DNA from: Octopus vulgaris
Lineage: Eukaryota
Direction of reading: 5' to 3'
Assembly (NCBI GenBank): GCA_951406725.2
Contig: OX597831.1
Location: 1,240,001-1,304,000, forward strand
Length of the DNA: 64,000 nucleotides
The number at the start of each line of letters is the position of its first letter. The stretch's first letter is position 1. The notes beneath the pieces are model-generated. The model ran no database searches, had not been told where the DNA came from, and saw only the letters and a list, made by a program, of their open reading frames with translations. Below, in pieces: positions 2,866-61,899 of this stretch. Position numbers and translations under genes: made by a program.

Positions 2866-4242
2866 CTACGCTTATAACACAGCCATGCCTGCAGCTATGA
2901 TACAGCCATGCCTGTTCCAATGTTAACAAGCCATGCCATCTCTCACCTAATATAGCATTTGGTAATCAGATGGTATTTTGTAATGTTCATTTTGTTTAAC
3001 TGTACTTTGTTAATAGGAATACATTTGTGCATCAGGTCAGATACTTTATTGCCTGAATATATGTATTTTGTATATGAATAGACAAGTCCCCTAGCTTCTA
3101 TTTTATTGTGCTAAATAGATTTAAGTATGAGATATTTTATACATATATATCAATACATTGAAATAGATATAGTTTTTTGTCTATTTTTATTAACTTCTCT
3201 GAAACCTTTTACACAAGAAGTATTTTCTTGTTATGAGAAATATTTTTTCAACATTAATATGTCATATGCATTTCACAAGTTGGCCTTGGGATATTTGTTT
3301 ACTGCCAATTTGCAAAATTTGTGTTCCCTTTGTAAAGAGTGTAGCAGAGAAAGAGCATATATATATATATATTACTTAGTTGAGGGAGTGGAAAGAAAAA
3401 AATTAGAGGGTAATAAAAAGAATCACTCTGGAAGAGAGAAAGTAAGAGAAATAGATTGGGAAAATAAAAGGAGTATGAAGAGGTTGAGGTTGTGCTTCTT
3501 TCCAAGAGTCAGTACTGCTACAGTTAATAACTAATAGTCAAAACTTACCATGAGAATAAAGGGAACAAGTGTTTTATTTCTTCCCATTCCATAGAAGTTC
3601 ATATCCTTTCTCCTTCACAAAAATTCAGTTTTAATCCCCAATGGCACCACCTATAAAAATTTAGACTCCACTAATAGCTCATTTACAAAAAGATGGTTTT
3701 CAGAGATCCTTTTTCAACTTCCTAAATATTCTAGAAATGACAAATACAGAACATTTTTTTTTTTTTAACCTCTTAAAGTTATTGCAATGGCAAGATCATT
3801 GTAGAATGGAGAAATTCAAAAGGAAACAACATCAGGATACAGGTGAAGGTAAAAAACAAAGGAAGACCCATCTAGCAGCAAACATAAACTGTACGACTGC
3901 TGCTTGATTAAAAGACTATGAAGAGGGAAAACAAACATCCATCTGACAGCGAATAAAAACTATAGAACTGATACCTGATTAAATCAAAGAGAAGAAAGGA
4001 GGGCTTGTCTAGAAGATGACAGAATGGTAACAATGCTCAAGCTAGCTTTCATAAAACTTTGAAAGAAAAGAATCATGTTGTTAACTTGAATTAAGCTTCC
4101 TTCCAAGAATCAGTACTGCCACTGTCAATAACTTACAGTACAAAGCCAGGACTTTTCAAAGAGAATAACAAGGACAAGTGCACAGCTTTTGCAATCCACA
4201 AAGTGAAATATCAAACCCACTGTTGTACTAACGCTAATGCTG

Positions 4243-4450
4243 ATTTCAAATTTTGGCACAAGGCCAGCAAGTTTGGGGGAGGGGTTAATCGATAACGTCC
4301 ACTCCAGTACTCAGTTGGTACTTAATTTATCGACTCTGAAAGGATGAAAGGCAAAGTCCACCTTGGTAAAATTTGAACTCAGAACATAAAGAAGGATGGG
4401 ATACTGCTAAGCATATTGTCTGTTATGCTAAAGATTCGGCCAGCTTGTAC
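4243..4450 (-). mobile_element. SINE family A
   Basis: GGATGAAAGGCAAAGTCCACCTTGGTAAAATTTGAACTCAGAAC motif in reverse orientation. Confidence 0.8.
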
Positions 4451-6626: not shown

Positions 6627-6950
6627 ATGTCATCTTTTATGTGCCGGTGGCACGTAAAAGCACCATCCGTTTGTGTCCATTGCCAGCCTCGCCTGGCCCC
6701 CGTGCTGGTGGCACGTAAAAGTACCATCCATTCGTGGCCATTTGCCAGCTCCGTCTGGCACCTGTGCAGGTGGCACGTAAAAAGCACCCACTACACTCGC
6801 GGAGTGGTTGGCGTTAGAAAGGGCATCCAGCCGTAGAAACACTGCCAGATCAGACTGGGCCTGATGCAGCCTTCTGGCTTCACAGACCCCAGTTGAACTG
6901 TCCAACCCATGCTAGCATGGAAAACGGACACTAAATGATGATGATGATTA
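6627..6950 (+). mobile_element. 5'-truncated RTE 3'-end copy inserted in the Helitron
   Basis: Matches the 3' UTR of the full RTE (29370-29697): GTGCCGGTGGCAC modules, CACCCACTACACTC..GGGCATCCAGCCGTAGAAAC..CCAACCCATGCTAGCATGG and a (GAT)n tail. Confidence 0.9.
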
Positions 6951-7676
6951 TTAAGAAGCTTGCAAAAAATGGGACTAATGGTGTAATAAGTCATAACATG
7001 ATTGAAGAAAGAGCCAATGTGTCTGTTGGAGAGGCATGTCACTAGGTGTTTGCAACAATCCTTTTATATATATAAGACGATCCAATCCCATAACTGTCTA
7101 GAACTATCACTCCTATACTTTAGGTGAAGACACGACACATTATGTTAAAGTAGAACCAATAGACAGGATTCTTAGCAAAATGCTTTGGGAAACTATGAAA
7201 ATACAATTTAATTATCTGCCCTGATCTTAGCACAGTTGGACCATACCATAGAAGAGTTAGAATATAATACAGAACAGCTAAAACAGATAATGGACACCAG
7301 CATTCCTGTACTGAATACAGAACAGCAACCTGTTTATAAATGCATTATCACATCAGTTAAGGAAGTATGAGGACAATTTATTGACTTGATGTTCTAGAAA
7401 GAAACAACAAAAGCGTCTTGTTCTTAACACTATTTGCCAGAATGCAATATGAAAATAAAATTGCTCTTGCAACAGCAACACCAGAAATTGCTGCAACACC
7501 TAATGGTTAAACTATACATTCTCACTTCAAAGTGCCTTTAAAGATAACTGGGCATTCAAATTGTGATATATCATAAAGGAGCGCAACTGCCAAGCTAATC
7601 AGCCGAACAAGTTTAGTCAGCATAGATGAAGTAACTACAGTTAAAAGAAAGCATTTGAGGTAATGGATCACAAATT

Positions 7677-7874
7677 ATTTTCTACTCTATGCACAAGGCC
7701 TGAAATTTTTGGTGGAGGGGGCCAGTTGATTAGATCAACCCCAGTATGCAACTGGTACTTAATTTATCAACCCCAAAAGGATGAAAGGCAAAGTCGACCT
7801 CAGTAGAATTTGAACTCAGAACATAAAGATAAACGAAATACTGATAAGAATTTCGCCCGGCGTGCTAACATTTC
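7677..7874 (-). mobile_element. SINE family A with 13-bp TSD, inserted in the Helitron helicase
   Basis: TGGATCACAAATT is duplicated at 7664-7676 and 7875-7887. Confidence 0.9.
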
Positions 7875-9580
7875 TGGATCACAAATTTTATGATATCCAT
7901 GAAACTGATAGACATTTTGAGAGAATTATAATGGTGTTTTCTGGTGACTGGTACTAAATTCTTCCAGTTGCACCACATGAAGATCATGCAGAAGTAATGA
8001 ATAAATGCTTCAAGAGCTCTTTGCTTTAGGAAGAACTTCAGATGATGCAACTCACCTTAAATATGGATAGGTAAAAGTTGAGAACACTTTACAAGAGCCA
8101 AACTAGCAAGGTCAATTGAAGATACAAATTTCAGGTAATCTTGTTTCCTGTGCAATTTCAAAGATATTTTGGCAACTATATAGTTTTGCAAACCTCCAGT
8201 AAAACTAAACCCGTGGACAAGATCTGTGAGCATGCAGTTCCTTGTCAAACTAACAACAGCATTACAAAAGTTAATGACATTTTGATAGACAGATTTACAT
8301 ATCAGATAAAAACATATTTAAGCAATGAAACAACATTCAATAGTAATAAGGTAAATCTTTACTCAATTGAAATTTTAAACACAAATTGCTTGAGTGGAAT
8401 GATTTAACACAAATTGTTTTTTAAAGGATGTACTCCCAGTGCACTTCTCCAAAATGTTTATGCAGCTAATGACCATGGCAATGGAACCTGAACAGTTTTG
8501 TTGAGCATTTTAACAAAATAGTTATTTATGCTGTTATTGCTTCTGGTATCCATAAAGGGAAATATTTACATGTTTCCCTTTATGAGCATCAGATTACAGA
8601 AATACAGGTTATCATGTGCTGACATTCCAAATACAAAAGCATTAATTTCTTCTTGAAAGTTCAAAATACAATTCTTTTGAAGGTCAGCATCCACCTCAGA
8701 AAAAATAAATGCTTCTCTCAGAAAATTCAAGTGGATTTAGTTATGGCAAAAACAAAGAATGAACATTACTCTTTTGCAGAGAATATTGATTGGCACTTTT
8801 TTTTTTTTTACTCCTTTTGTTTTTATGCTTTTTTCTTTTCTATACTAGCATGGGTTAGATGATTGTATTATTGAGCTGTTATTTTACAGTTGGATGGCCT
8901 TCCTGTTGTCAATCCCCAACCTGTTTTCAAGTAAGGGAGCTCTTATTGCATACATTTTCAAAGTTGCAAAACCAGTGGACAATTTCTTAACAGGAGAAAT
9001 GACAACAATGTCACAGCTTCTATCTTGGTGATTTTCAAAAGTGTAAATGTTAACAAACACAAACACACAAATGTGCATTCAACACACACACATACACATA
9101 GATGTGCATTTATATACATATATGATGGACTCTTTTCAGTTTCTATCAACTAAATCCCCTCATAAGGCTGTGGTCAACCTCATGCTATAATAGAAGACAC
9201 TTCCAAAGGTACCATACAATGAACCTTAACCACAAAGCCATGCTCATGCTTAAAAGTTGTAACATCACCTGCAGTTGTAACATCACACTGCATCTGCTGT
9301 AAGCTACTACACTAACCTAACATTAAGAATACTGCATAGTAAATATTTGTTCTTGAATAGTTTAGTTCTTATATACTACAATGTTCATACAAAAGTCAGT
9401 GACACTTAAAATGTTTCAAGCCATTTTAATCATGGGGCTGTTGTAGACTGTTCATGCAGCTGAAATCGTTTGAATATCCTATTAAGACATGAAAAAGAAA
9501 TTTCAGTTCATATTTAACTTTTCTGCCCATATGGTGGGTATTAGGCTAGTGTATTGTATGTGTGGGGAGGTCTCTCTCTT

Positions 9581-14814: not shown

Positions 14815-15679
14815 TTAAGAACTATGAAGTTGGCAGTGAGTAATACATAAGTTTAAATTTAATTACAGTCAATAGCTGTAATACATAAGATTATAAAGAT
14901 TAAATATTTACAAGACAGGTTGTTTGTGACTGAATAAGAGGTTTTTGGTCTTCCTAATAATCCCCAGGTTCCCCCACTGATTTGTATATATTTACATCTA
15001 TTCTTAGTCTGACTGCCAATCTGCAGCTGGCTCCTGATGAAGTTGCTTATAAAAAGGGTTTTGCTAATACATTAACATTAGAAATAGGCAGAAATAATGC
15101 CTGGCTCATAAACATCTTAATTTGGTTAGGTAATGAGCTTTATTAATGTGCTAAATAGATTTGAGCATCACATATCATATAAATAAAATAGTTATTAATC
15201 CATGCAAGTAGTTGTATAAAGGAAATAAAGGAAGCTGAAAATTTACAGAGAGTGTTTAAGAAGAATCATGGATATTAAATATCAGTATGCTTAACTGGTT
15301 TCACATTTGTTTGATTTTCAAAAGCCTAAGATTTAAGGGACATAGAGATATGTCACAAACTGTATTGTTTACAGCTCCATGTCTCTCAAAACTGACACCT
15401 TTGAAAATCATGCAAATGTGAAAGCAATTAAGTGTATCAATATTAATATAAATAAATCTTCTTATACATTCTCTGTGCATTTTCAACATCTATTTCCTAT
15501 ATATGTATATAGTATGTAAACAATCAGACTTCTGCACCGTTTCTGTCTATCAAATTCCACTCACTAGTTATTGGTCAGCCTAAGGCACTGGCCTAAGTGT
15601 CACATAGTTGGATCAACCTAGAACAACATGGTGATAAAATGATCTTCATAACCAAAAATAGCCACATAAATATACATAC

Positions 15680-15735
<56 letters not shown>

Positions 15736-15795
15736 GTAGGCATACACTTATATACACATATGGCTATTTTTGTAATTATGCATTAATATCCATGC

Positions 15796-16103
15796 ATCAT
15801 CATCATCATCGTTTAGCGTCCACTTTCCATGCTAGCATGAGTTGGACGGTTCAACTGGGGTCTGGGAAGCCAGAAGGCTGCACCAGGCCCAGTTTGTTCT
15901 GGCAATGTTTCTACGGCTGGATGCCCTTCCTAACGCCAACCATACCATGAGTGTAGTGGGTGCTTTTTACGTGCCAGACGAGTCTGGTAAACGGCCATGA
16001 TCGGATGGTGCTTTTTATGTGCCACCGGCACGGGGGCCAGGCGAGGCTGGCAATGGCCACGAATGGATGGTGCTTTTTACGTGCCACCGGCACGGGGGCC
16101 AGC
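15796..16103 (-). mobile_element. RTE 3'-end copy
   Basis: (CAT)n followed by the reverse complement of the RTE 3' UTR. Confidence 0.9.
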
Positions 16104-16695: not shown

Positions 16696-17264
16696 AAATT
16701 TTTGGTAGTAATGACTTATGTCCCTCTTAGTGTGAGGCTTTTATGTGTAATAATGCCCTCTATATAATATAAATTAATATGTTCAAAAGAAAAAAAAAAA
16801 TTATTTTCGAATTTTTCTCTTATGAGGTTTTTCACGTTAACTACCTGATAATTTCTTGTTAAGATTCCTTATTAAGAAGTTATCCTTAATTGTTAAATTT
16901 ATTCCGAAAAAACTTTTCCTACCCGAAATGCAGTTCGAAAAAGCCCGCCATTTACCGATTATATGATTTATAAACATCTCCATGTGCTTCGTCGGAGAGA
17001 GCAGTTGCCTGTTCGACTTCGACGGTGTTGGTCGTTTACTTATGGTGTGTTCAGAATCAGTTCTACCGATGAGCATAGACGCATTTTTTATGCGGTAAGT
17101 GCGAAATCACAGGTGATATAGGACTAAATTTATTTTTTAAATGTCTTGCTTTGAAAAACTGCATTGGGTATGATTAGTGAAATTTTTGGTAGTAATGACT
17201 TATGTCCCTCTTATTGTGAGGCATTTATGTGTAATAATGCCCTCTATATAATATAAATTAATAT
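16696..17264 (+). mobile_element. Retrozyme-like element: 484-bp unit with 85-bp terminal direct repeat
   Basis: 16696-16780 and 17180-17264 are identical except for 2 bases. The interior is CpG-rich, contains a hammerhead fold and has no meaningful ORF. Confidence 0.7.
17059..17125 (+). ncRNA. Type I hammerhead ribozyme (U4C core variant)
   Basis: Stem I AGTTCTA/TAGGACT; core CCGATGA; stem II GCAT/GTGC capped by CGCAT-TTTTT-ATGCG; GAAA; stem III TCA-CAGG-TGA; TA, with predicted cleavage after 17118. Confidence 0.75.
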
Positions 17265-21188: not shown

Positions 21189-21412
21189 GTTCAGATTTTG
21201 ACACAAGGCCAGCAGTTTCAGGGGGAGGGGTTTAGTTGATTAAAAGTGGTACTCATTTTACCAACCCTGACCTCAGAGGAATTTGAACTCAGAACATAAG
21301 GATAGACAAAATGCTGACCTCAGAGGAATTTGAACTCAGAACATAAGGATAGACAAAATGCCATTAAGCATTTTTTCCAGTGTGCTAACGATTCTGCCAG
21401 CTTGCTGCCTTA
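21189..21412 (-). mobile_element. SINE family A with an internal ~47-bp tandem duplication
   Basis: CTGACCTCAGAGGAATTTGAACTCAGAACATAAGGATAGACAAAATG occurs twice in tandem. Confidence 0.8.
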
Positions 21413-22515: not shown

Positions 22516-23438
22516 ATTGTCCAATGTGTTTTTACCTTATTTTAAAAAAATAGGGAGTGATGTGAGGGAGATTTGGCTGTATTTTCTAGCAGGTTTAACA
22601 ACAGCACAGAAGCTTACTTTTTGGCTTGTGGTTATGAAGGAAAGGGTGAAAAACTTTTCGATTACATTGATTACAACCTCCTTTTAAGAGAAAGAAATAC
22701 CAAAATATTAATAAGAAAAACTTACAAAAATATTTCTCTGCTAAATCAATTCCTCTTCCTACCACCATGCCCCCCATACATACCTTGAACGCAAAATCAG
22801 ACACCCATTCACTATACATTATACACACTCATTACACCCACATGAATTCAATTAAACAAACTATTCAGTTAAAAACTCTCGAAAAATCACCCAATCTTCC
22901 AATCAATTGTAAAACAACAGTGGATCAAATAGAATCGAAATTAATATTTTTGTTTGTGGATTATAGAAAGTTCTGAACTATAAACAGAAAGATGGAACAC
23001 CAAAATTAGAACACATAAAATCTTTAATCCTCCATGAAGTTAATGCAATGTTCTTGGTGTTTCATTAGGAGACGTGCTGTTGAGATGACGTAGAGGCATA
23101 GGTATAGGGGAAGAGATGTATGACATGGCGTGTCTGTGTAAAAGCATGTATGCTTATGCCTATGTGTCCACAGGTGAGTGAATTATAGATGCAGGTGCAT
23201 GTACAAGTAAGGCTAAGTCTAGTTGTATATACATGTTTCATGGTGTGTATTTGTGAATGTGAGTTTCATGTATATTGCAAATGAGCATGCCTATATAAAT
23301 CTGTGCATAGACAAGTGAGTTTATATATATATGTGTGAGAGGGGTTGTATGTAGAGTACTTTTCTATGTATAAGAGTAATATCAAATGTAATTATCTCTG
23401 AGGACAGGTGCATGTACAGGTGTATAAATATGATTAAG

Positions 23439-23472
<34 letters not shown>

Positions 23473-23527
23473 CATACATATATAGGTAAATATTTATGTG
23501 TTGGGTATGTTCGTTGCAGTAGGCCAA

Positions 23528-23725
23528 TGAAGCACATTCACTGCCTATGGCTACCTGATATCATCCAAGATATTTATATAATTGTCACTGATTCTACCTT
23601 GGGAATTCTTCAGTGTACGTTGAGCATATAACAAATGACAGAGACGGCAAAGGGAAAACATGAGAAACGTTGTGAGCAATAAAGTTTCTCGTATATTCCA
23701 TTTTCCATCTCTATCATTTGTTATA
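23528..23725. mobile_element. Partial fold-back (inverted pLTR-like) repeat, same family as 30860-31118
   Basis: 23528-23668 is a diverged reverse complement of 30975-31118. 23676-23725 is a direct match to 30969-31020. Confidence 0.7.
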
Positions 23726-23739
23726 TATATATATATGAA

Positions 23740-23993
23740 TAGCCTCGCCTGGCCCCCGTGCCGGTGGCACATAAAAAGCACCATCCGATCGTGGCCATTT
23801 GCCAGACTCGTCTGGCACGTAAAAAGCACCCACTACACTCATGGAGTGGTTGGCGTTAGGAAGGGCATCCAGCCATAGAAACATTGCCAGATCAGACTGG
23901 GCCTGGTGCAGCCTTCTGGCTTCCCAGACCCCAGTTGAACCATCCAACCCATGCTAGCATGGAAAGCGGATGCTAAACGATGATGATGATGAT
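23740..23993 (+). mobile_element. RTE 3'-end copy inserted in a TA microsatellite
   Basis: Near-identical to the RTE 3' UTR, with a (GAT)n tail. Confidence 0.9.
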
Positions 23994-24256
23994 ATGTATG
24001 TATATATATGTATATATATATATATGTATATATATGTGTATATATATATGTGTGTGTGTATATATATCTATATACATGCATACATACATATATATACATA
24101 TAAAGCTGCAAAAACATCACCAAAATATCACAGAAAATGCTACTCAGAGTTTCATGCTCCCATTCGTTGGACAGTCGTGATTAAGAATGGGACAAGAATT
24201 AAGATTATATATATAAATATACGACTACCTTCTTTCTCTACGACTACCTTCTTTCT

Positions 24257-25747
24257 CTACGACTACCTTCTTTCTTGCACTTATCCTTACTCTTTCTCTA
24301 TTCTTCAATTTCCATCTCATTGTATTGTCCCTCATTCTTTCAGTATTCCCTCATTACCCTGTCTAGCTCAAACATTTTTTTCGTTTAGACTTGTCTCCAG
24401 GTTCATAGCCACTCTGATTTTTCAATTTTTCAATTTTTCGTTTAGTATTGTCTCCCGATTCATACTAACCCATTTGCTAGCTCACGATTAACAGAACCTC
24501 TTTACTCAGCTACGGTGTTATATTAGCTATCAATAATGATATTCCCTCTGATTTTTCTGATTTTCAAACCTATTTATCTAATGTTTATTTATCGACAATG
24601 CCGTCCCCAGTCAAATTCCCTCACACCGCTTATTGTCACGTGTCCCTTGACCTCTCTCTCTAACTAACCCTATCTCTCTCTCGCTATGTTCCCCCCTTCC
24701 CATAACCATCATCGCCATGGTCCTCTATGCCCCCCCCCCACTCCCCAAAACCATCATCGCCATACATAAAAGAGCGATCGCATTTATCGTTAACCCCACT
24801 CGCTTCAAAATATCTAAAGAATACGCACAGATCATGAATGGCTAAAAGTTAAGTGAATCGTTCAACCTCGCTACGACTACCTTCTTTCTTGCACTTATCC
24901 TTACTCTTTCTCTATTCTTCAATTTCCATCTCATTGTATTGTCCCTCATTCTTTCAGTATTCCCTCATTACCCTGTCTAGCTCAAACATTTTTTTTTTCG
25001 TTTAGACTTGTCTCCAGGTTCATAGCCACTCTGATTTTTCAATTTTCAATTTTTCGTTTAGTATTGTCTCCCGATTCATACTAACCCATTTGCTAGCTCA
25101 CGATTAACAGAACCTCTTTACTCAGCTACGGTGTTATATTAGCTATCAATAATGATATTCCCTCTGATTTTTCTGATTTTCAAACCTATTTATCTAATGT
25201 TTATTTATCGACAATGCCGTCCCCAGTCAAATTCCCTCACACCGCTTATTGTCACGTGTCCCTTGACCTCTCTCTCTAACTAACCCTATCTCTCTCTCGC
25301 TATGTTCCCCCCTTCCCATAACCATCATCGCCATGGTCCTCTATGCCCCCCCCCCACTCCCCAAAACCATCATCGCCATACATAAAAGAGCGATCGCATT
25401 TATCGTTAACCCCACTCGCTTCAAAATATCTAAAGAATACGCACAGATCATGAATGGCTAAAAGTTAAGTGAATCGTTCAACCTCGCTACGACTACCTTC
25501 TTTCTTGCACTTATCCTTACTCTTTCTCTATTCTTCAATTTCCATCTCATTGTATTGTCCCTCATTCTTTCAGTATTCCCTCATTACCCTGTCTAGCTCA
25601 AACATTTTTTTCGTTTAGACTTGTCTCCAGGTTCATAGCCACTCTGATTTTTCAATTTTTCAATTTTTCGTTTAGTATTGTCTCCCGATTCATACTAACC
25701 CATTTGCTAGCTCACGATTAACAGAACCTCTTTACTCAGCTACGGTG
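24257..25747 (+). repeat. 2.4 near-identical tandem copies of a ~615-bp monomer at the RTE 5' end
   Basis: Units 24257-24870, 24871-25486 and partial 25487-25747. The differences seen are homopolymer lengths. Preceded by 19-bp repeats TACGACTACCTTCTTTCTC. Confidence 0.95.
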
Positions 25748-25919
25748 CACCCGCCCTCCCACCCCCACCACGCATGCCGGAAGTTCCTATTCTCTTCCAT
25801 TCCGGGGTTGCTTCCCATGAAGACTGCAAATGCTCTCACCATCCCTACCCCTCCCTACCCCTAGTCTCGACCTATGTAAGGTAATGTTCATACAGTGCAA
25901 AATATGAAAGGCTAGCGTT

Positions 25920-27248
25920 ATGCAGGTTGTACTGAAGGCTACTTTACTACTTCATTTTTTGCACATGAATTCTGCCAAATGCGAGCTTTCTTTTCAGGTA
26001 CACGAAGCTACTGTCCACCGTCCCAGGGTCTCTAGAGCCCATGCCTTCCACACCCTCAGGGTTGGCACCCTCAACGTTGGCACTCTGAAAGGTAGGTCTG
26101 GTGAGATAGTCGAGATGCTTGAACGGAGATGTGTGGATATATGTTGCATGCAAGAAATAAGGTGGAGAGGAGGATCAGCTAGGTTCCTCACAGGCAAGGA
26201 ACGCAGGTACAAGATTTTCTGGGCAGGGAATACTGACGGGGTTGGTGGCGTGGGTATACTTATCGCTGAGAAATGGGTAGATAAAGTAATTGAGGTAATC
26301 AGAGTAAGTGACAGAATACTTAAGATTAGATTAGTGCTTCATCATAGTTTAGCAACCATTATATCAGCCTATGCTCCTCAGTCGGGGCTACCCGATGGAC
26401 AGAAAGACCGATTCTATGACACTCTACTGCAGACTACCTCATTGACGAACGACAGAGACCTTATCTTTGTGGCTGGTGACTTCAATGGTCACGTTGGACG
26501 ACATGCTGGGGGCTTCCATGGCGTACATGGAGGCTACGGCTATGGCTCCCGCAACGAGGAGGGAACCAGGCTGCTGGAGTTCTGCGATGCAAATAATCTT
26601 ATGATTTGCAACACTAACTTCAGGAAACCTACCAGCCACCTAGTCACTTACCAATCGGGCCAACATACCAGCCAAATTGACTACATCCTTACAAGGCAAA
26701 GGGAGAGATGGCTGCTTATAAATGCCAAAACCTTCCCAGGTGAAGAATGTACCCCACAACATAGACTGGTAGTTAGTGACTTTAGGATCAGGACTAGGAG
26801 GACAACCAGAAGACGACAAATATGGAGAAGAAGGATCTGGAAGCTTAAAGATCCTGCAAATGGACAGAGATTTAGGGACATATTACTTGAAGCCTCTGAC
26901 GAAGTAGAAGGGGATAGAGCATCACAGGGGGTAGAAGACAGCTGGACGTTTCTAAGGGACAACCTGCTGAGAGCCACTGACCAGATCTGTGGCTGGTGCA
27001 AAGTCCCCTCTCGACCTAGAATAACGTGGTGGTGGAACAATATTGTAGACAGGGCTATTAGAGAAAAGAGACAGGCTTGGAAGGTCTGGAAAAATGGGGG
27101 TAGCAGGGAATTGTATCAGACTGCCAAAAGAGAAGCTAGGAGACAGGTTTATTTAGCCAGAGGGGAAGCAGATAAGAAAAATTTGCCAATGTTCTGCGCC
27201 GTGAGGACCAAAGACTGGAGGTGTTTCGTGTTGCAAGACAGTGTGTGA
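25920..27248 (+). CDS. RTE ORF, N-terminal part: AP endonuclease (APE/EEP)
   Basis: Motifs GTLNVGTL, CMQEIRW, SAYAPQ, VAGDFNGH, SQIDYIL, PQHRLVV. The frame is lost at the A-run 27177-27181. Confidence 0.93.
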   Translation: MQVVLKATLLLHFLHMNSAKCELSFQVHEATVHRPRVSRAHAFHTLRVGTLNVGTLKGRSGEIVEMLERRCVDICCMQEIRWRGGSARFLTGKERRYKIFWAGNTDGVGGVGILIAEKWVDKVIEVIRVSDRILKIRLVLHHSLATIISAYAPQSGLPDGQKDRFYDTLLQTTSLTNDRDLIFVAGDFNGHVGRHAGGFHGVHGGYGYGSRNEEGTRLLEFCDANNLMICNTNFRKPTSHLVTYQSGQHTSQIDYILTRQRERWLLINAKTFPGEECTPQHRLVVSDFRIRTRRTTRRRQIWRRRIWKLKDPANGQRFRDILLEASDEVEGDRASQGVEDSWTFLRDNLLRATDQICGWCKVPSRPRITWWWNNIVDRAIREKRQAWKVWKNGGSRELYQTAKREARRQVYLARGEADKKNLPMFCAVRTKDWRCFVLQDSV

Positions 27249-29086
27249 GAGAGAATCGTGATGTGGTAGGAGAGAAGTGTGTTCGCATGGAAGATGGTTC
27301 ACTTGCGCTAAATGAGGATGCAAAGAGAGAGGTTTGGAGATGCCACTATGAAAGGTTGCTGAATGAAGAAAATGAATGGGATAAAGAGAGTCTGCCGAAT
27401 GTTGACCCAACAGAGGGACCAGCTATCCGAGTTGATAGTTCTGTGGTAGCTAAGGCAATTAGAAGCATGAAGACAGGGAAAGCCCCAGGCCCATCAGGAA
27501 TCACTGCAGAGATGCTCAAAATGTCTGGTAGTGTCGGCTATAGCCTAGTCACCCATATAGTTAATCAGGTGATACACAAAGGGGTCATACCCAATGACTG
27601 GTGTAGCAGTATAATAGTCAACTGCTACAAAGGTAAAGGTGATGCCCTAGATACAAACAACTACAGAGGTATCAAGCTGTTGGACCAGGTGATGAAGGTT
27701 ACGGAGAGGGTCATAGCCCAACTAATTAGAGAGAGAGTTAGTTTAGATGAGATGCAGTTTGGGTTTGTGCCAGGGAAAAGTACTACTGATGCTATATTCC
27801 TGGTAAGGCAGCTGCAGGAGAAATACCTAGCCAAAGATAAGCCCCTGTACCTGGCTTTTGTTGACATGGAGAAAGCCTTCGACAGGGTCCCCCGATCCCT
27901 TATCTGGTGGGCAATGAGAAAACTAGGGATAGATGAATGGTTAGTGAGAGCTGTGCGGGCCATGTATAGGGACGCCGCTAGTAGGGTGAGGGTTGGAAAT
28001 GAGTACAGTGAAGAATTCCGGGTAGAGGTAGGGGTCCACCAAGGCTCAGTACTCAGCCCCCTCCTATTTATCATAGTTTTCCAGGCAATAACGGAGGAAT
28101 TCAAGACAGGATGCCCTTGGGAGCTCCTCTATGCTGATGACCTTGCTCTAATTGCTGAGTCGCTATCAGAACTGGAGGAGAAGTTTCAGGTGTGGAAACA
28201 AGGATTAGAATCGAAGGGCCTCAGAGTCAATCTAGCTAAAACCAAAGTCGTAATCAGTAGGAAGGTAGACAAATCACAAACACCTTCAGGTAGATGGCCC
28301 TGCTCGATCTGTAGAAAAGGTGTAGGTAGAAACTCTATAAGATGCACCAAGTGTAAGCTATGGACACATAAGAGATGCAGCAATGTCAAAGGAAGGCTAA
28401 CTAGGAAGATGGTTTTTGTATGTGGCAGATGCTCAGGAACAATAAACACTGAAAATGCTCTGAGACCAACTTCTGTCACTTTCCAGGGAGAAAAACTAGA
28501 AATAGTTGATAGTTTCCGTTACCTAGGTGACCAAGTCAGCAGCGGAGGCGGGTGTGCTGAAAGTGTAACTGCTAGAGTAAGAATAGCTTGGGCAAAGTTC
28601 AGAGAGCTCTTACCTCTGCTGGTGACAAAAGGCCTCTCGCACAGAGTGAAAGGCAGACTGTATGATGCGTGTGTACGAACAGCCATGCTACATGGCAGTG
28701 AAACATGGGCCGTGACTGCTGAGGATATGCGTAAGCTCGCTAGAAATGAAGCCAGTATGCTCCGATGGATGTGTAATGCCAGTACTCACACTCGGCAGAG
28801 TGTAAGTACCTTGAGAGAAAAGCTGGACCTAAGAAGCATCAGTTGTGGTGTGCAAGAGAGACGTTTGCGCTGGTATGGTCATGTGGCGAGAATGGATGAA
28901 GATAGTTGTGTGAAAAAGTGCCACACCCTAGCGGTTGAGGGAACCTGTGGAAGAGGCAGACCCAGGAAAACCTGGGACGAGGTGGTGAAGCACGACCTTC
29001 GAACTTTAGGTCTCACCGAGGAAATGACTAGAGACCGAGACCTCTGGAAGTGTGCTGTGCGCGAGAAGACCCGGCAGGACAAGTGA
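27221..29086 (+). CDS. RTE ORF, C-terminal part: non-LTR reverse transcriptase + PHD-like finger
   Basis: Motifs KAPGPSG, NYRGIKLL, QFGF, AFVDMEKAFDRV, GVHQGSVLSPLLF, LLYADDL, FRYLG, LRWYGHVARM, GRPRKTW, plus CSIC..CTKC...H..C..CGRC. Confidence 0.96.
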   Translation: MFRVARQCVRENRDVVGEKCVRMEDGSLALNEDAKREVWRCHYERLLNEENEWDKESLPNVDPTEGPAIRVDSSVVAKAIRSMKTGKAPGPSGITAEMLKMSGSVGYSLVTHIVNQVIHKGVIPNDWCSSIIVNCYKGKGDALDTNNYRGIKLLDQVMKVTERVIAQLIRERVSLDEMQFGFVPGKSTTDAIFLVRQLQEKYLAKDKPLYLAFVDMEKAFDRVPRSLIWWAMRKLGIDEWLVRAVRAMYRDAASRVRVGNEYSEEFRVEVGVHQGSVLSPLLFIIVFQAITEEFKTGCPWELLYADDLALIAESLSELEEKFQVWKQGLESKGLRVNLAKTKVVISRKVDKSQTPSGRWPCSICRKGVGRNSIRCTKCKLWTHKRCSNVKGRLTRKMVFVCGRCSGTINTENALRPTSVTFQGEKLEIVDSFRYLGDQVSSGGGCAESVTARVRIAWAKFRELLPLLVTKGLSHRVKGRLYDACVRTAMLHGSETWAVTAEDMRKLARNEASMLRWMCNASTHTRQSVSTLREKLDLRSISCGVQERRLRWYGHVARMDEDSCVKKCHTLAVEGTCGRGRPRKTWDEVVKHDLRTLGLTEEMTRDRDLWKCAVREKTRQDK

Positions 29087-30203
29087 GTCCACAACCCGTG
29101 GCCTTCTACATGGGATGGAGCCAGCCTACGTATGCATACCTTCCCTTCTTGGGACACAAAACTCTACTTGTGAAGACGTGTTGAGGCAAGTGAGGATCAG
29201 AATCGAAATCGATCAATGGAAATTGCGGATGTGCTACCAGTGCCGGTGGCATGTCGAAACTCTGCTTGTGAAGACCCATTGAGGCAAGTGAGGATCAGAA
29301 TCGAAATCGATCAATGGAAATCGATCAATGGAAATTGCAGATGTGTTACCAGTGCCGGTGGCATGTAAGAGAACCTTCCGTTTCGCGACCGTTGCCAGCA
29401 CCGCCCCGTTTCGTGTTCGTTGCCAGCCTCGCCTGGCCCTCGTGCCGGTGGCACATAAAAAACACCATCCGTTCGTGGCCGTTTGCCAGCTCTGGCTGGC
29501 ACCAGTGCGGGTGGCACGTAAAAAGCACCCACTACACTCACGGAGTGGTTGGCGTTAGGAAGGGCATCCAGCCGTAGAAACACTGCCAGATTTGACTGGG
29601 CCTGATGAAGCCTTCTGGCTTCACAGACCCCAGCAGAACCGTCCAACCCATGCTAGCATGGAAAACGGACGCTAAATGATGATGATGATGATGATGATTG
29701 TACAATTTATGTTGACTAATACACATTTGAATTTGCTTTCATTTTACTGGTGGTTTCAACTAAAGGATTTTTTTAGGAAAAGGTGAATTAAATATCATAC
29801 TGTGTAAAATTGAAAAAACCTTAAATCAAAAGTAAATTTTAGTTTAGAAGGAAACACATACATGCTCAGAGCAAATTAATTAATGTTAAAATAAGTTTAA
29901 TTAAAATTAATTAAAATACATTAAAATTAATTAATGTTAAAAGAAATTTAATTAAAATGTACTCTGGGCATGTACGTTTTTCCTTCTAAAGTAAAATTTA
30001 TTTTTGATTTAAGGTTTTCTTTGATTTTACACAATACGATATTTAATTTTTTATATCATCGTTTCTGAAAAAAAAAAAAAAAAACTCCGTTAGTTGAAAT
30101 GACCAATGAAATGAAACCAAATTCAAATGTGTATCTGTCGATGTATATTATACATTATATTTATACATATAACCTTAATTTGTGTCCCATTTTTAATCAC
30201 AAT

Positions 30204-30239
30204 TGTCAGACGAATGTAAACATGAAACTCTGAGTAGCA
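30204..30239 (+). ncRNA. Minimal type I hammerhead-like motif in the fold-back right arm (mirror copy on the - strand at 24138-24173)
   Basis: TGT-CAGACGA-ATG(TAAA)CAT-GAAA-CTC(T)GAG-TA-GCA. The left arm on the minus strand reads TGT-CCAACGA-ATG(GGAG)CAT-GAAA-CTCTGAG-TA-GCA. Confidence 0.6.
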
Positions 30240-30357
30240 TTTTCTGTGATATTTAGTTGATGTTTTTGCAGCTTAAGCATATTACTCTACCTCCGGTATT
30301 CAAGTACTATTTTTCCCCACCTTGTCTCACATGTATGTGCTTATTTTGGTGTCTATG

Positions 30358-30399
<42 letters not shown>

Positions 30400-30859: not shown

Positions 30860-31118
30860 TAAAAATCACCTGCCGTGACACTTCTGCACTAGGGATGCTC
30901 CGCAACCAGTTGTACAATATCCTGCCCATGAGGGATCGATGCATGATGGGTCAAAACGATTGCTGCGAGCAATAAAGTTTCACGTATATCCCATTTTCTG
31001 TATCTATCATTCGTTATATATTCACCAAACACCAAGGAATTCCTGAGGTAGATCCAAGTGACAGTTGTAAAAACACCATGGATGATGTCAAGTAGCAATA
31101 ATCAGTGAATATACTTCA
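30860..31118 (+). mobile_element. Penelope-pLTR-like repeat with a decayed hammerhead-like motif and AATAAA
   Basis: CCCATGA-GGGATCGATGCATGATGGGTC-AAAACGATT..GCAATAAAG. Homologous to 23528-23725. Confidence 0.55.
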
Positions 31119-31464
31119 CTAGTTAAGTACCAGGGACATACCCAATGCTTAAATAATCAGCTGCATTGTAAATCTGATAAGTTATTCATTGGCTTGCATT
31201 ACTGAATTCATTTCTTCATGCAGAAAAGTTACTTGTAACAGACTGGTGCTTTAGCCAGGAGGAATTTTATCTCTTATCTAATTAACACCACAAGGAAACA
31301 GAATTAAGCACAGTGTTAGAAAACTGTAGGCAGCCCTGACAGACAGACTAGTCTTATGAAATTTTTATTTGGGACTTTGCACCATGAGGTAAATGCTAAT
31401 GCATCTATTTAGTGTATAATCCAGCAAGATAACAAATTTTGGGTCAATAAGAGAACATTTAAGC

Positions 31465-40600: not shown

Positions 40601-40687
40601 TAATGATGATAGTTCATATCATTTCAGGTAATCCAGGATAGTCCCTATTCAGCACATTCCCAGATGTTTCGAGTTTTAAATTTAGGG

Positions 40688-40900
40688 TTCAAATTTTAGC
40701 ACAAGGCCAGCAATTTCGGAGACAGGGTGTAAATTGATTACTGGAATTATTGAATTATTGAAACTGGAACTTATTTTATCAACCTCGAATGAATGAAAGG
40801 CAAAGCTGACTTCAGCGGAATTTGAACTCTGAACATAAAGACAAACAAAATGCTACTAAGCATTTGCCAGGTGTGCTATCAGTTCTACTAGCTCGCCATC
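40688..40900 (-). mobile_element. SINE family A
   Basis: Diagnostic GAAAGGCAAAGCTGACTTCAGCGGAATTTGAACTC. Followed by decayed + strand copies at 40925-41140. Confidence 0.8.
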
Positions 40901-41762
40901 CTATTCAAGTATTAAATATTAAGACAACAAACTGGCAGAATTGTTACCAAATCAATTAAAGTGCCTCTTGATATTTGTGCTGACTCTTTGCACTCTGAGA
41001 TCAAATCCTGACAAGGTCAACTCAGAGTCAATGAAAATAGTTACCATTGAGAGTAATGGATTAGTGGAACTGCAAGAATGTCAGACAGGATGCTTTGTTC
41101 CAACTCTTTGCATTTTAAATTCAAATAATGCCATGGCCTAACTGAGTGGCAAAGTTAATCAGTTGACCAATTTGACACCACAACCTGACACTCTAAATAT
41201 TTTTAATATTAGGGCCAGAACATACCTGGCCCTAATGCCAGATATGTTACCAGGATACCTTCCTTCCTTCCTCTCACCATTCTTGGAGACCTTGTAAAGT
41301 GTCATGGGCTCTGCCTTTCTGACAAAAATATTTTTTTTAAAAATAGCCGTAGTGATAAGAAGTTGATGGTCAGAAATATAAAGCAGATGCTTGATTTTAT
41401 TGGCTTCTATTATGTGATATTTTTATCTTGAAATTTCTTGCCTGTACTGCCATATTTCATACCTGAAACAAGGTTATTGTTTAAAAGATGGCAGTTTAGT
41501 AGATCTGGCCATTATATTGATCAAGTCAAGCAGTAAGGAAATTTCTTAGCTGAAAAGAAAAGTGTAGCACTGTTGATGTTTAACCTCAGCTCAGCTGTTA
41601 TCCAGCAGAATTATGATCAAAAGATGTTCAAGTAATGACTTCCCATATACTCTTTAAAACATATCTAGTATGGCATACTCAGTGTGGTATAACAGCAGTA
41701 TGATGCTTAATAAGACTGAACATTTGAAAACAGAAATCATTTAATGTATGTGATCTAAATTT

Positions 41763-46520: not shown

Positions 46521-46740
46521 CAAGTGAATAAGTAGAAATTTCCTCGTTAGTTCAAATGCCATGAATGTGAAGGTGTTGGAAACAAAAGGTGTCGGTTGTG
46601 TTAAAAAAAAACAACAACACAGAAATCACTTGTGAGACAACTAAAACCCACCAACTTCATTTCACATCTTACGCCCCCTTCATCATCCACTTTTTCTGGT
46701 CCTTCAGTAATTAGGGATGGATTATCTCCTTTATACTATT

Positions 46741-46953
46741 GGTTTCAAATTTTAGCACAAGGCCAGAAATTTTGAGGGAGGGATTTGGTTGAGTATATCA
46801 ACTCTGGTGCTCAACTGGTACTTATTTTATTGAGACTGAAAGGATGAAAGGCAAAGTCAACCTTAGTTGAATATGAACTCAGAATGTAAGGAGGGATGAA
46901 ATGCTGCTAAGCATTTTACCCAGTGTGCTAATGATTCTGCTAACTCGCCACCT
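46741..46953 (-). mobile_element. SINE family A, full length
   Basis: Complete head-to-tail match to the other copies. Confidence 0.85.
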
Positions 46954-49339
46954 TAAATCTCCCTTGTACTATTAACAAGTAGTTTCAACCAAATAGGCAA
47001 AAGCTGGTATAAATAAATGAATTGTCTATAATTCCAATGTATAAGCATGAGATAGTAAAGTGAGTTCTTCCATCTTTAACCCTGCATATAATAGTAGATG
47101 TAATTGCATTACAAAAACAAAAATAAGAAAAGAGAAAAAGAAAAACCCATGAGTTCAATCCTTACAACCAAGAATTGTGTGGTGATCCTTGACAAGATAA
47201 CTTACAACAATTTCTTTAATTTACCACAAAGGAATCAGTTACCTTTCTGCTTTTCATGTTTAAATGGTTCGTGATAAGAAGAGCTTTGAGCTGCAAAATC
47301 CCACAGCCTTCCCTAATTCGTATGCAAACATCCAAACATGGGTAATTACCAATATAAGAAATCATCCTATGGAAAAAGAACAGGCAGATTGGCAAGATCA
47401 ATGGAGCGAGGAATAAAATGCCAAGCAATTTTTACCTTTCATCCTTCCATGGTTGGTCTTAATAGAGTGTTTTTTCACACCTCATTCCACCAAATTATGT
47501 GACCTTGTGCCTATGTTAGAAAACAGTAGCCAATGGTAGAGAAAGAGTGTGAGTAAGGCACTATAGTAAATGGCTTTATAGGTTCAAACCTAATGAGGGT
47601 CCACTTTGCCATTCAAAGTATCAAACTTCTCCCTACAAATATTTACTTTCTACAAATTAACTCATAAACATGCCAAAAATTTCACTCTAGATTATTCTTC
47701 CTTCCTTTCTCAAGACCTGACAGTACCACAAGCATGCCATTATAACATATGGTATATCTCGGACATCAAAGCCTGACATAGCCTAACCCTCTCCAAGTTT
47801 GAACACATCTAATTTTTTTCCAGAGAGAAGGGGAGAAAGTGAGAAAGAAGAAGAATCAGCCCTAATATTGGAATGGTTCTTTATTGACCTTAGAAGGTTA
47901 AAGTTGACCCAGATGGGACTGGAACTCAGAGTTCATGAAACTAGAAAACAAGACAGTTTTATGCTGTAATGACTCAGCCTTCTATTCTAAATTATCTATT
48001 GCAACCACAGTAGCATCTAATCTGCATGCATGTGCAACTGTGCAGTGGCTGTCACATGTCCATGTAAGTAACTCAGACCCTCACTCACTCCCAATTTCAC
48101 AACACTAATGAAGTGGTTGTTTTTTTCCTTTTCATTTTTGTCATATCAACACTGAATGAAGTAGAGTAGTTGTGAGTGTATGGATTTTTTAAAAGCTGAC
48201 AAATATAGAATATCTTAATAGGATTATAATTTTTCTGGCTATTGACTGTGTCATTAAATATTAATAATTTTAGTAATTACATGTGTACTATGCTTTGACA
48301 GGTTACTGATACAGATATATTCATCAGTGGCCTAGTGGAGAAGAAAGTCATCACTCTTCGTATAAAAATAAAGGTTCTTTGTATACAACCAAGAACAAGA
48401 CATTTGATGATGTGTTTGGACATCTGACTGGAAACAAATGAGGATGTAAAATAAAAAGTAAAAGACTATTTTATCTCTAAGAATGAGTTTTATAGATTTA
48501 AAAATGATAATCTTATTAACAACATCACATCTCGGACATCTAGACATTTAGTAAAATATATTATTTAGTCCCTACCCACCAAATTATTCTATAGTTTGAT
48601 CCTGTGTTTTCTGGTCCAATTCAACTGCTGTACATCTTCACCCTTTGCTTAAAGAGGAGCATTAAATAAAAACCAGAATCCAAAAAGCTAGTGAAGGTCT
48701 CTGTCAACAAAAGTTCACAAATTTGGAATATTACTTCAAAAGTTTGTTGTATCAAAGAAGGGATTTGCTTGAAATCTCAGTATTCACCAGGTCTTATCCA
48801 AATTTGTAAACTTTATCATTGGTAATATGTAGTAATAAGAATCACAAAGACACTGTTTGAAAGGATACAAATAGTCTAGTTAGCAGAGATTCAAAGTTAG
48901 TCAGACACCTTTATTCTGAGATGGAGCCCTAAATGCAAGGTGTTGTTCTACTGTGGTCACAGTCATTTCATCATTTCATAGTGCTTGAGTAAAATAATAC
49001 ACATCACTGAAATAAAATACAGATCTAATAGAAATATTAAATTACCTAGCACACTTTTACTTCATTCCTTTATTTTGTTGTAGGAATGTAAATGACATAC
49101 TTAGGAAGAAATTTACTTGTTATGTCCTCAGTTAATGTTCTTAGCATCAACAATAAATCTCTCATCTATATTCTGCTAAAACATTTACACGCACACGCTC
49201 TCACAGACATACACATTTATATAATATACATGGACATTATGTGTCTACATGTGCATGTATGTGCGTGTATATATATATATATACATACACACACACACAT
49301 ATATACATATACACATACATATATATATTAATATATATA

Positions 49340-50856: not shown

Positions 50857-50863
50857 TGATGAT

Positions 50864-52260
50864 GGTTTCAAATTTTGGTACAGGTGAGGGGTAAGTCGGT
50901 TACGACAACCCCATTTTCAACTGGTACTTATTTTATCGACCCCAAAGAGATGAAAAGCAAAGCCAGCCTTGGCAGAATTTGAATTCCAAACATGAAGATG
51001 GACAGAATGCTGCTAAGCATTTTACCCGACATGCTAACAATTCTGCTAGCTCACCACATTAAATAACAACAGTAACTCTTTTTACTATAGGGACAAGGCC
51101 TGAAATTTGAGGGGAGGAGACTAGTCAATTACATCACCCCAAGTACAAGACCAGTAATTATTTTATTGACCTTTAAAGGATGAAAGGCAAAGTTGGTCCC
51201 TGTGGATTTTGGACTCAGAATGTAAAGCCAGAAGAAATGTTGATATGCATTTTGTGAGGCTGTTAATGATTCTACCAGTCCTACAACAGCAACAGCAACA
51301 AATAGGAAGAATTTGGAGCGTGCAAACAGTAAAGGTCGTGCCCATAATAATTGGTGTGTTGGGAACAGTAAGCCAGAATATAGACAAATGGCTGAAAGAG
51401 ATTGAAATAGAATGCCCAGTAGAGCTCCTACAGAAAGTTTGTCTCTTAGTGACAATAAGGATTATCAGGAAGGTTCTAAGCACTTGAAAGACTACTGAAA
51501 ATGTGTGGATACCTAAGGTTACAAGTAGTAACCTGCTACCCACATAAATCCTACCAGGAATCAGACCAAACCTGAGCTTTGTTCCTCTAATAATAATATT
51601 TTCTAATTAAGGCACAAGGCTTGCAAACTTGGTGGAAAAGGTTAATTGATTACAATGACCCCAGTTTGAACTCAGAACAGATAGAATTGGCTTAAATGTC
51701 ACTAAGAATTACTTCCAAAGCTCATATGATTCTGCCAATCCACTGCTCTCTAAAATTACAGACCCTGCGCCTAAATTAGAAACAATCAGGGGACAATGGA
51801 TATGACTCCAGTGCTTAACTGATACTTTATTTTAATCCTCCATTCTACCCAAGGATGAAAGGATGGAAGTTTACCTCAGCAGGATTTGAACTCAGAATGT
51901 AAAGAGCTAGAAAAAATATCACAAGGGATTTTGCTAATCCACTAACCCAATAATAATAGTTTCTGTATAGACACAAAACCTGAAATTTAGGGGAGGGATT
52001 GGTCAACTAAATTAATCCTAGTATTTCACAGGTACTTTATTTTACTAACCCCAGAAGGATGAAAGGCAAAACTGACCAAAGCTTGATTTGAACTCAATTT
52101 ATTGAGGGCTTGTGCATCTGGTCATTTAAACCAATGCAGTACTTTATGGCATATTGTATTATCAACCTTAGAAGGATAAAAGATGCGATTTGAACTCAGA
52201 ATTTAAATAGCCATAATAAATACCTAAAAGTGTTTTGTCAAATGTCCCGATTCTGCCGTA
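50864..52260 (-). mobile_element. Cluster of ~6 same-orientation SINE family A copies
   Basis: Repeated GGATGAAAGGCAAA..TTTGAACTCAG-like motifs at ~50950, 51180, 51665, 51855, 52060 and 52175. Confidence 0.75.
51300..51598 (+). mobile_element. R4/Dong-like LINE 3' fragment (end of the restriction-like endonuclease domain)
   Basis: IGRIWSVQTVKVVPIIIGVLGTV...LLQKVCLLVTIRIIRKVL*, then a short 3' UTR and (TAA)n. Confidence 0.8.
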
Positions 52261-55448: not shown

Positions 55449-56149
55449 ACTCACAGAGTAACATTAGTTATTCTGTGAAAAATACACATTGTGGATAAAC
55501 CAGGTTTTAGTCTCTGTAGTCAGGAAAAAAAAATCGATCTCCACCTCACCTAGTTTTAGAATTTATTAACACTTCGTCAGGGATTGGTTGCACTTTTTCT
55601 AACCACAGAGGGAATATCAGTTCATAGATATTTATAACATGCAAATTCAGAATTAAATTGGTCTGTCTCATTTCCATGACACTGCTACTATTGGCAACAG
55701 AAATTCATTGATTAATGGTTTCTAATTTAGATACAAGACCTGCAATTTTCATGATTGGGTGGGATTACCCTAATATTTGTTTTATTGAACCTGAAGGAAG
55801 GATGAAAGGCAAAACTGACTTCAGTAGGATTTGAACTTAGAACATTGAGAGCTGGGACAAATATTCTTTTATTCTTTTACTTGCCTCAGTCATTTGGCTG
55901 CGGCTATGTTGAAAAGCACCACCTTAAAAGTGGACTCCATCAGCTTGCCACTCTGAACCCATTAATTAATAGAAGTTCTACACAACAATAAAATAAGTAG
56001 ACATATTTTCTTAAAGTCTGTTCTTACAGATGTTGTTTATGTAGGGATTTGGAATGGGGTTCAGGTGGTCAAGTGTCAAAAATTTTATCAGAATTGTGGA
56101 GGACTTAAACATCTAATTAAATCTACATAATAATAATAATAATAATAAT

Positions 56150-56362
56150 CCTTTCTGCTATAGGCACAAAGCCTGAAATTTTGGGGGAAGGGGACAAGTC
56201 AATTACATCGACCCCAGTGTTTCATTGGTACTTAATTTATAATTCCAAAAGGATGAAAGGCAAAGTCTACCTCAGCGGAATTAGAACTCAGAAGGCAGAG
56301 ACAGGTGTAATACTGCTAAGCATTTCATCTATCATACTAACAATCCTGCCAGCTCACCACCA
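56150..56362 (-). mobile_element. SINE family A with (AAT)n tail
   Basis: Full match to the family, flanked by AAT repeats. Confidence 0.85.
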
Positions 56363-59511: not shown

Positions 59512-59603
59512 GAGAGATAGAGCAATACAAAAGTATAGTTACTTCGAAAGAGATTCTTTTTTCAATACATTGTGCATTATCATTCTGTCAATCCTCATCT
59601 TAA

Positions 59604-61075: not shown

Positions 61076-61899
61076 TTCCTTTGCCATACACACATACACA
61101 CAAATGAGCACGAGTGCAAAACAAGATAGTAAAAATAGTACTCAAATACCAAAGTAGAGTAATATGCTTTTATTAAAACTCCAAAATTATTACTCAGTTT
61201 TCATCACACAGGAATGTGAAACTCAGAGTAACAGTTTTGTGATAATTTGAAGCTTTGGGGAGGAAGGGAGAGAGAAAGAGAGGAGGGGGAGAGAGAGAGA
61301 GATGTCATAAAATCAGTGTTCCATCCTCTGATCAATGTTGAAAAAAAAATCAGAAGCTATTGCATGGTACATAATCATTCAAACAAACATGGCAAAGTGA
61401 TGAAAACGCTTAACTTGCAAGAAATTTTTTTTTAAATCACAGAACAATCAACTGTTGCAATCTACTGGGTCTCTTCTCCTGCATGTACATTGTGCCTTAA
61501 GCAATAATAGATTTCACAGCTAAGCTGATCTATCTTCTAGAGACAACACAACCAAGTTGTTGAAAATCATGCCACGCTTTATATATCACATGTACCCACT
61601 ATAGTAGTTGTTGTTCTTGGTCTCTGGTGAGCCTTGTCAAACACACCTAAGTTTAATGACAAAACTATTAGGGATAATGTGTAGCTTTTCCACATCATTA
61701 ACTACATACATAGAAAACATAGTGAAAGAAACAATATGACACACAAAAATACTTAGAGTAATCATTGGTGCCATATTTAGTGAATGGAAAGAAACAACAA
61801 CTGCAGAGTACAAACAATACATTAAATCCAATATAGATTATGCCAATTCTACCTGAGTCTCCAATATCCCCACAACAATGTAAAAAAAAAAATACAGAT

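Follow-up and report, generated by a model that had tools for sequence, protein, structure and literature searches.

A fold-back element is carried by a 64,000-nt stretch of the Octopus vulgaris genome (GenBank assembly GCA_951406725.2, contig OX597831.1, positions 1,240,001 to 1,304,000), which is referred to here as the window and whose coordinates are used throughout. This hairpin is probably a head-to-head pair of 5'-truncated 3' ends of a Penelope-like element (PLE), each with a dead Hydra-type hammerhead, which was later split by a long interspersed nuclear element (LINE). A preliminary description of the sequence had favoured a Penelope-like, RNA-derived origin over a DNA miniature inverted-repeat transposable element (MITE), and this part of it is upheld by the Hydra layout of the motif, a tail at one end only, (TA)n tracts on both flanks and a second copy with short arms at about 61 kb. 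With no protein left, the element qualifies neither as an autonomous PLE nor as a Hydra member, and it does not qualify as a functional hammerhead either. As the absence of an open reading frame (ORF) is expected for 3'-end fragments, it bars the label of autonomous member but not derivation from a PLE.

The restored fold-back

Excision of 24222-29697 joins 24104-24221 to 29698-30273 and restores a fold-back of 694 bp, as the preliminary description had indicated, with arms that are identical at 252 of 294 ungapped columns (86%). The arms enclose an AT-rich centre of 87 bp (29873-29959) that contains five palindromic TTAATTAA words and a 35-bp direct duplication (33/35 identical). With the polarity taken from the hammerhead motif, the element comprises an inverted, 5'-truncated copy, with 3' ends that point outward. 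It extends from the (TA)n tract at 23992-24102 to another that starts at about 30347, with (TA)n on both sides of 24104-30346. This is the target listed for 26/27 Hydra families (supplement of PMC8557442).

An ORF for reverse transcriptase (RT) and GIY-YIG is absent from the restored element, which has no ORF longer than 54 codons, and a Pfam search of three short frames in it returned no match. The arm end (30237-30273) holds a degenerate 12-nt repeat, of which the 61-kb copy lacks one unit; this difference suggests two subfamilies. Spurious antisense-frame ORFs used as probes for further copies gave no candidate at 21-86 aa and none that was significant at 87-2000 aa. A borderline repetitive protein, retrieved with an antisense frame from 1.84 billion sequences, was rejected as a copy of the element, and an exact 32-nt scan of bacterial and archaeal genomes with the element sequence gave 0 matches. 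Candidate copies at 47920 and 33133 were inspected and discarded as well. The arms share no similarity beyond short AT-rich words with the other palindromes of the window or with its 484-bp unit (see below).

A Hydra-type hammerhead motif in each arm

Two hammerhead-like motifs lie on opposite strands and face outward, at 30204-30239 (+) and 24138-24173 (-), where the preliminary description had placed them. Their stems are identical at 18/18 positions, and loop II reads TAAA in one arm and GGAG in the other. Both arms display the GAAA, the A15.1-U16.1 pair, the NUH triplet and the three helices of a type I hammerhead, in a fold that is energetically not favoured, and both lack the type I core CUGAnGA.

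For comparison, features were counted in the 25-family Hydra table of the PMC8557442 supplement, from which a descriptor was also fixed. In these families, stem III begins with AC and ends with GT in 25/25, spans 9 nt in 19 and reads ACTC-N-GAGT in 5; U precedes GAA in 17/25, loop II measures 4 nt in 17, stem I has 3-4 bp in 13 and the cut follows A in 11. The arm motif possesses every one of these features. The Hydra descriptor matches the two arms alone in the real window. It matches 2/3503 shuffled windows at ≤ 1 box mismatch, 27/3503 at ≤ 2 and 0/3503 with ACTC.GAGT, a chance rate that is optimistic since the descriptor was adopted after the resemblance had been seen. The fit of the motif to the Hydra-type PLE layout exceeds chance. 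A generic type I hammerhead descriptor, which was run on block-shuffled windows (n = 2389) and on shuffles of the arm (n = 1500), has no exact match anywhere in the window; the arm shuffles matched in 0/1500 cases at ≤ 1 mismatch and in 18/1500 at ≤ 2.

The pattern of a varying loop and a kept stem, to which the preliminary description drew attention, is present but is weak evidence. Zero changes in 18 stem positions have P = 0.08, and three changes in a fixed loop II have P = 0.005, which rises to P = 0.34 for any 4-nt window and is hence not significant after window choice. When the two arms are compared, the core is conserved no better than the arm (2/9 changed, P = 0.29). In the 61-kb copy the loop III base differs and the stem is kept, with too few copies for covariation. 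Two of the three loop II differences also fill out a local inverted repeat of 8 bp, in which 24158-24165 of the left arm pairs with 24185-24192; it may have arisen by template switching or may represent the ancestral form. This repeat (24158-24192, with a 19-nt loop) is absent from the right arm and competes with the hammerhead fold.

What had been presented as a hammerhead core is canonical in neither arm (CAGACGA on the right, CCAACGA on the left). By established mutagenesis, changes at U4 and G5 make hammerhead activity unlikely, and the hammerheads of both arms are very probably inactive now. U4C is a weakly active natural hammerhead variant (PMC3088659), and U4A and G5A variants were not found in the text of that paper. 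Position 4 departs from U in two different ways between the arms, and from these two arms U4 is the least parsimonious ancestral state (three changes versus two).

A second copy and a one-sided tail

The miniature copy at 61 kb is placed between (CA)n-like and (GA)n-like tracts, unlike the main element with its (TA)n flanks. It contains the one further exact occurrence of the signature word (61217-61230), and a profile built from the two arms alone finds the locus at E 4.4e-4. Its plus arm (61217-61255) is identical to the arm end at 34/39 positions with one 12-nt and one 1-nt gap, which is the best non-self match of 47,750 pre-filtered windows, and stops at the equivalent AGCTT. The right 'flank' of the main element (30274-30346) also recurs there, with 35/40 identities to 61169-61131 (E 3.6e-8) and 54/68 over the full length, in inverted orientation. 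Because this stretch recurs beside a related end, it belongs to the element and is not unique flank; the right end, which had been set at 30273/30276, thus shifts outward. A search for a tail copy on the left side, in 23400-24103, found none, and the tail of ~73 nt stands at one end only. Arm lengths range from ~300 nt in the main element to ~40-60 nt in the 61-kb copy, at two loci alone.

The tail bears on the alternative that 24104-30273 is a DNA MITE, of the PIF/Harbinger or another type, with very long terminal inverted repeats (TIRs), a TAA duplication and a chance look-alike of a hammerhead. An exact TAA stands on either side of the inverted part 24104-30273, the ends of which read AG...CT (AGCT...AGCT), and in PIF/Harbinger elements the duplication is TWA, the TIRs measure 5-1042 bp and the first base is A or G (PMC4482050). 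The broken boxes and the unfavourable fold would also suit such an element, as would the chance rate of the generic motif (13% per window at ≤ 1 mismatch). The right TAA, however, opens the 73-nt stretch that recurs at 61 kb. As it sits inside the recurring tail, it is probably internal to the element, and the apparent target duplication is probably incidental. At 61 kb, the arms are much shorter and no TAA duplication accompanies the copy, and the Hydra-type fit lies far beyond chance. Short matches are moreover cheap at these ends, since other exact 'duplications' of 2-4 nt occur at neighbouring offsets (three, plus one further 3-mer); TA and TTAA duplications each require a mismatch. A Harbinger MITE with a chance motif was our initial reading, which was dropped on the Hydra table and the 61-kb copy, and we now regard a DNA MITE as unlikely.

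How the ends were made

The distance from cut site to element end is 37 nt on one side and ~110 nt on the other. As the arms run ~250-300 nt through the cut site and end this far beyond it, the template was uncleaved and the ribozymes did not make the ends. The preliminary description had proposed a ribozyme-terminated element and hammerheads that act as dimers, and neither proposal is supported: the motifs lie on opposite strands, which leaves no cis dimer, both boxes are mutated, and in the fold of the read-through RNA the sense motif is paired into the long arm duplex. The fuller version of this idea holds that a palindromic, non-autonomous element of fixed form is mobilised as a whole via RNA, with ends made by active dimeric hammerheads. 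It can draw on a near-palindromic stem III with a trans pairing of -7.9 kcal/mol, on outward-facing motifs near both ends and on the non-autonomous PLE derivatives (retrozymes) described in the literature. Set against the positions of the ends, the buried sense motif, motifs that cannot share a transcript and a second copy with different arm lengths, we consider it most improbable.

Another possibility is a hybrid history, in which an inverted pair of PLE ends was later mobilised as a MITE by a DNA transposase, or an origin from another PLE clade (Neptune, Nematis or Penelope/Poseidon) with a similar hammerhead. This would reconcile the TAA and AG...CT ends with the hammerhead layout, and the clade assignment rests on one Hydra table. 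The one-sided tail and the (TA)n flanks require no transposase step, however, and no fixed-length copies were seen in the window; we rate this possibility as very unlikely.

Several observations weigh against the interpretation as a pair of PLE ends. The flanking TAA and the AG...CT ends are as in PIF/Harbinger elements, with a chance of ~0.002 by composition, the 8-10 bp target duplications typical of PLEs are absent here, the ~73-nt tail exceeds the described 30-40 nt, and no remnant of RT or GIY-YIG was seen in the arms. Neither arm has an intact catalytic box, U4 being changed on the right and both U4 and G5 on the left, and a canonical ancestor would need three changes at two adjacent sites. 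This broken box and a stem II of 3 bp are unlike most Hydra families, in which the box is CUGAnGA in 25/25 and stem II has 3 bp in 2/25 alone (PMC8557442). On its own, the hammerhead fold has an unfavourable +4.1 and +3.0 kcal/mol in the two arms, and with the distal helix it reaches -2.1 and -3.1 kcal/mol, against a free minimum of ~-8; Rfam scans gave weak matches alone (93, 9 and 3) and no hammerhead family. By chance, the generic descriptor matches 301/2389 shuffled windows at ≤ 1 box mismatch (33/2389 if ≤ 40 nt) and 1636/2389 at ≤ 2, and the rate of the Hydra descriptor is, as said, an optimistic one. Finally, the comparison covers two loci alone, and the minus arm of the 61-kb copy aligns weakly (score 23).

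The pair of PLE ends would stem from a single old insertion, in which a PLE protein with RT and GIY-YIG would have cut a (TA)n site and copied an uncleaved RNA from two internal starts, 37 and ~110 nt downstream of where the hammerhead cuts. Copying would have run ~300-400 nt through the uncleaved motif, both cDNAs would have stopped early, and they may have been joined in the AT-rich centre, rich in TTAATTAA, through priming from both cut strands or through fold-back self-priming. Decay would have followed, amounting to ~7% in each arm provided that the two started out identical, and the LINE would have entered the left arm later. Among 24 Hydra consensi (one was left out, as its hammerhead row is at the 5' end), the cut lies 29-47 nt from the end in 10 cases and 87-152 nt from it in 11 (PMC8557442). 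These two classes, which come from different curated Hydra families, may correspond to tail-less and tailed ends.

The insert in the left arm

The split had been ascribed to an RTE element. The insert does include an element with APE endonuclease and RT, but 24222-25747 consists of 614-bp tandem units as well. The LINE frames encode the endonuclease (25908-27248) and RT with PHD (27176-29086, frameshifted), with Pfam matches to PF14529/PF03372 (APE endonuclease), PF00078 (RT) and, weakly, PF00628 (PHD). The layout suggests an RTE-type element, the clade named in the preliminary description. In a homologue search, the best matches of the RT stood at 57-59% (74% over 70% of the length). The 614-bp unit is pyrimidine-rich, a 19-bp triplication precedes the array, and the array could consist of 5' monomers, could have inserted separately or could reflect an assembly repeat. 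No clear target duplication was found at the insertion site of 24222-29697.

The 3' end of the LINE, with its (ATG)n tail, is common to a family of short interspersed nuclear elements (SINEs). Sequences of this abundant family, ending in (ATG)n, lie at 29406-29692, 23741-23993, 6640-6951, 15749-16102 and 58871-59512, and the copy at 58871-59349 is made up of about eight tandem 62-bp units.

Table 1. Features of the fold-back element, its insert and its second copy in the window (TRF, Tandem Repeats Finder)
Feature	Position	Strand	Evidence
(TA)n-type microsatellite, left flank and probable target	23992..24102		TRF: period 2, 55.5 copies
Outer portion of the left arm; the inverted copy has its 3' end, without a tail, at 24104	24104..24221	-	104/118 nt identical to the reverse complement of 30156-30273
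Degenerate type I hammerhead, box CCAACGA (2 mismatches), stem III ACTC-T-GAGT, cut after UA	24138..24173	-	motif match
Tandem array of about 2.5 units of 614 bp, on the 5' side of the insert	24222..25747	+	units 1 and 2: 613/613 identical columns
Younger LINE, RTE-type by layout	25748..29697	+	ORFs, Pfam, (ATG)n tail
Left arm, inner part	29698..29873	-	148/176 ungapped columns identical to the reverse complement of 29960-30155
AT-rich centre, probable head-to-head junction	29873..29959		35-bp direct duplication, five TTAATTAA palindromes
Right arm	29960..30273	+	arm alignment
Degenerate type I hammerhead, box CAGACGA (1 mismatch)	30204..30239	+	possible distal helix I: 30196-30201 with 30245-30250
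One-sided extension (tail), ~73 nt, opening with a TAA that mimics a target duplication	30274..30346	+	matches 61169-61131
(TA)n microsatellite, right flank; degenerate from ~30347	30354..30397		TRF and sequence
Second, miniature copy: tail (61100-61169, -), short minus arm, short plus arm (~61215-61255)	61100..61255		arm and tail matches

Other elements of the window

The window is AT-rich and rich in microsatellites and in SINEs, which resemble those of octopus. Inside 16696-17264, at 17059-17125 (+), lies a better-formed type I hammerhead with a 7-bp stem I, the box CCGAUGA (U4C), a G10.1-C11.1 pair, an extended stem II, a near-palindromic stem III and a cut after UA. For its stems I and II the probability of pairing is high, matches of similar quality occur in 0-2/2389 shuffled windows, and an Rfam scan did not identify it. 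This motif is located within the 484-bp unit, which has an 85-bp direct terminal repeat (83/85 identical) and may, on sequence grounds, be a young partial-tandem PLE or a retrozyme-like insertion.

Two pieces of another palindromic repeat flank the main element at 23475-23726 and 30964-31170. One comprises a long left arm and the centre, the other the centre and a long right arm, with arms that are 72% identical and a direct overlap of 58 bp at 88%; they are possibly an older fold-back split by later insertions. A whole-element palindrome of ~290 bp lies at 15215-15503 (arms 78% identical, no descriptor match). A second dispersed family of ~200 bp, presumably SINE-like, has at least 10 copies that are 70-85% alike, among them 406-727, 4240-4448, 7679-7876, 21267-21412, 40685-40901, 46740-46958, 50863-51279 and 56135-56361. 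The two copies at 406-727 happen to make up an inverted repeat.

Implications for repeat annotation

If the hairpin is indeed a pair of PLE ends, a fragment of a retroelement can pass for a DNA MITE, even to the point of showing a spurious target duplication of 3 bp, and this would be relevant to repeat annotation where PLEs and unknown repeats are abundant. In Octopus vulgaris, the figures are 6.8% for PLEs and 15% for unknown repeats. A bolder proposal, which we find doubtful, is that the host carries abundant ORF-less derivatives of Hydra-type PLEs that insert as head-to-head hairpins, bear a tail of ~70-75 nt, keep a non-canonical position 4 (17059-17125 also has C4) and are misfiled as MITEs or 'unknown'. 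In that case, RT start sites and the formation of junctions in vivo could be mapped from the many short copies, which would also put two-ended priming to the test. The end positions of the two copies at hand agree with the mechanism of two start sites that has been demonstrated in vitro for one PLE. No new ribozyme or element class is revealed here, and the element works like published inverted PLE pairs.

Comparison with known systems

PIF/Harbinger (Tourist-like) MITEs (PMC4482050) resemble the element in TIRs that start with A and in TAA flanks. They differ from it in that here the right TAA is internal to a recurring tail and the copies differ in length. Non-LTR retrozymes (PMC7229834; bioRxiv 10.64898/2026.07.22.740005) are likewise short, ORF-less and AT-rich, with a type I hammerhead and a probable PLE origin; they are direct tandem repeats with intact ribozymes, whereas the element is an inverted pair with mutated ones. 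In the literature searched, no palindromic non-autonomous PLE hammerhead family was recognized by title or abstract, in a thin search that is not proof of absence. No title among the papers listed for hammerhead and octopus concerned octopus ribozymes, and two short motifs of the element had no occurrence in a full-text literature search.

The anole Poseidon PLE enzyme (PAc, PMC11167929) cuts and extends both strands at AT-rich DNA and needs no ribozyme cleavage; it starts at two internal RNA sites, and the spacing between these starts forms the tail. In Adineta Penelope elements (PMC3846280), head-to-head junctions are ascribed to self-priming. Both systems share with the octopus element an optional tail, head-to-head inverted pseudo-long terminal repeats and palindromic junctions, and differ from it in a tail of 30-40 nt and target duplications of 8-10 bp. 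In PAc the ORF begins within stem II; the corresponding ATG of the octopus element runs into a stop codon within four codons in either arm.

In Schistosoma mansoni, PLEs display two minimal hammerheads on opposite strands, ~100-700 bp apart, which are ascribed to truncated PLEs (Cervera and de la Pena 2014, PMC4209133); here the distance is ~620 bp once the insert is removed. The Schistosoma hammerheads have a 7-8 bp helix II, an additional base at 9-10.1 and a G10.1-C11.1 pair, none of which occurs in the octopus motifs. The latter likewise depart from the metazoan minimal PLE consensus (helix II of 6-8 bp) in their A-U closing pair and 3-bp helix II. The Octopus bimaculoides entry Hydra-1_oBim also closes stem II with A-U; membership of the same family was rejected, as stems and 3' end differ by eye. 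The arm motif itself is absent from the PMC8557442 supplement in a text search of one strand.

Hydra-clade PLEs (Craig et al. 2021, PMC8557442), such as Hydra-2_aMil, Hydra-2_aJap, Penelope-3_HM and Hydra-1_oBim, share with the element the U-GAA-ACTC-N-GAGT-H motif, a 4-nt loop II and short stems. They also share its position 37 or ~110 nt from the 3' end, the (TA)n target and the outward inverted pair. The octopus element is set apart from them by its mutated box, its 3-bp stem II and the loss of any ORF. The Hydra clade is marked by the protein motifs RWK and DKT and a CxCX5C linker, with no CCHH, and the element retains no coding sequence. In PLE insertions, a 5'-truncated copy in inverted orientation and a one-ended tail are frequent, and Penelope-13_HM has such a copy with hammerheads on both strands, as here (both PMC8557442). 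The architecture of inverted PLE ends is therefore already published and not new (PMC4209133, PMC8557442, PMC3846280).

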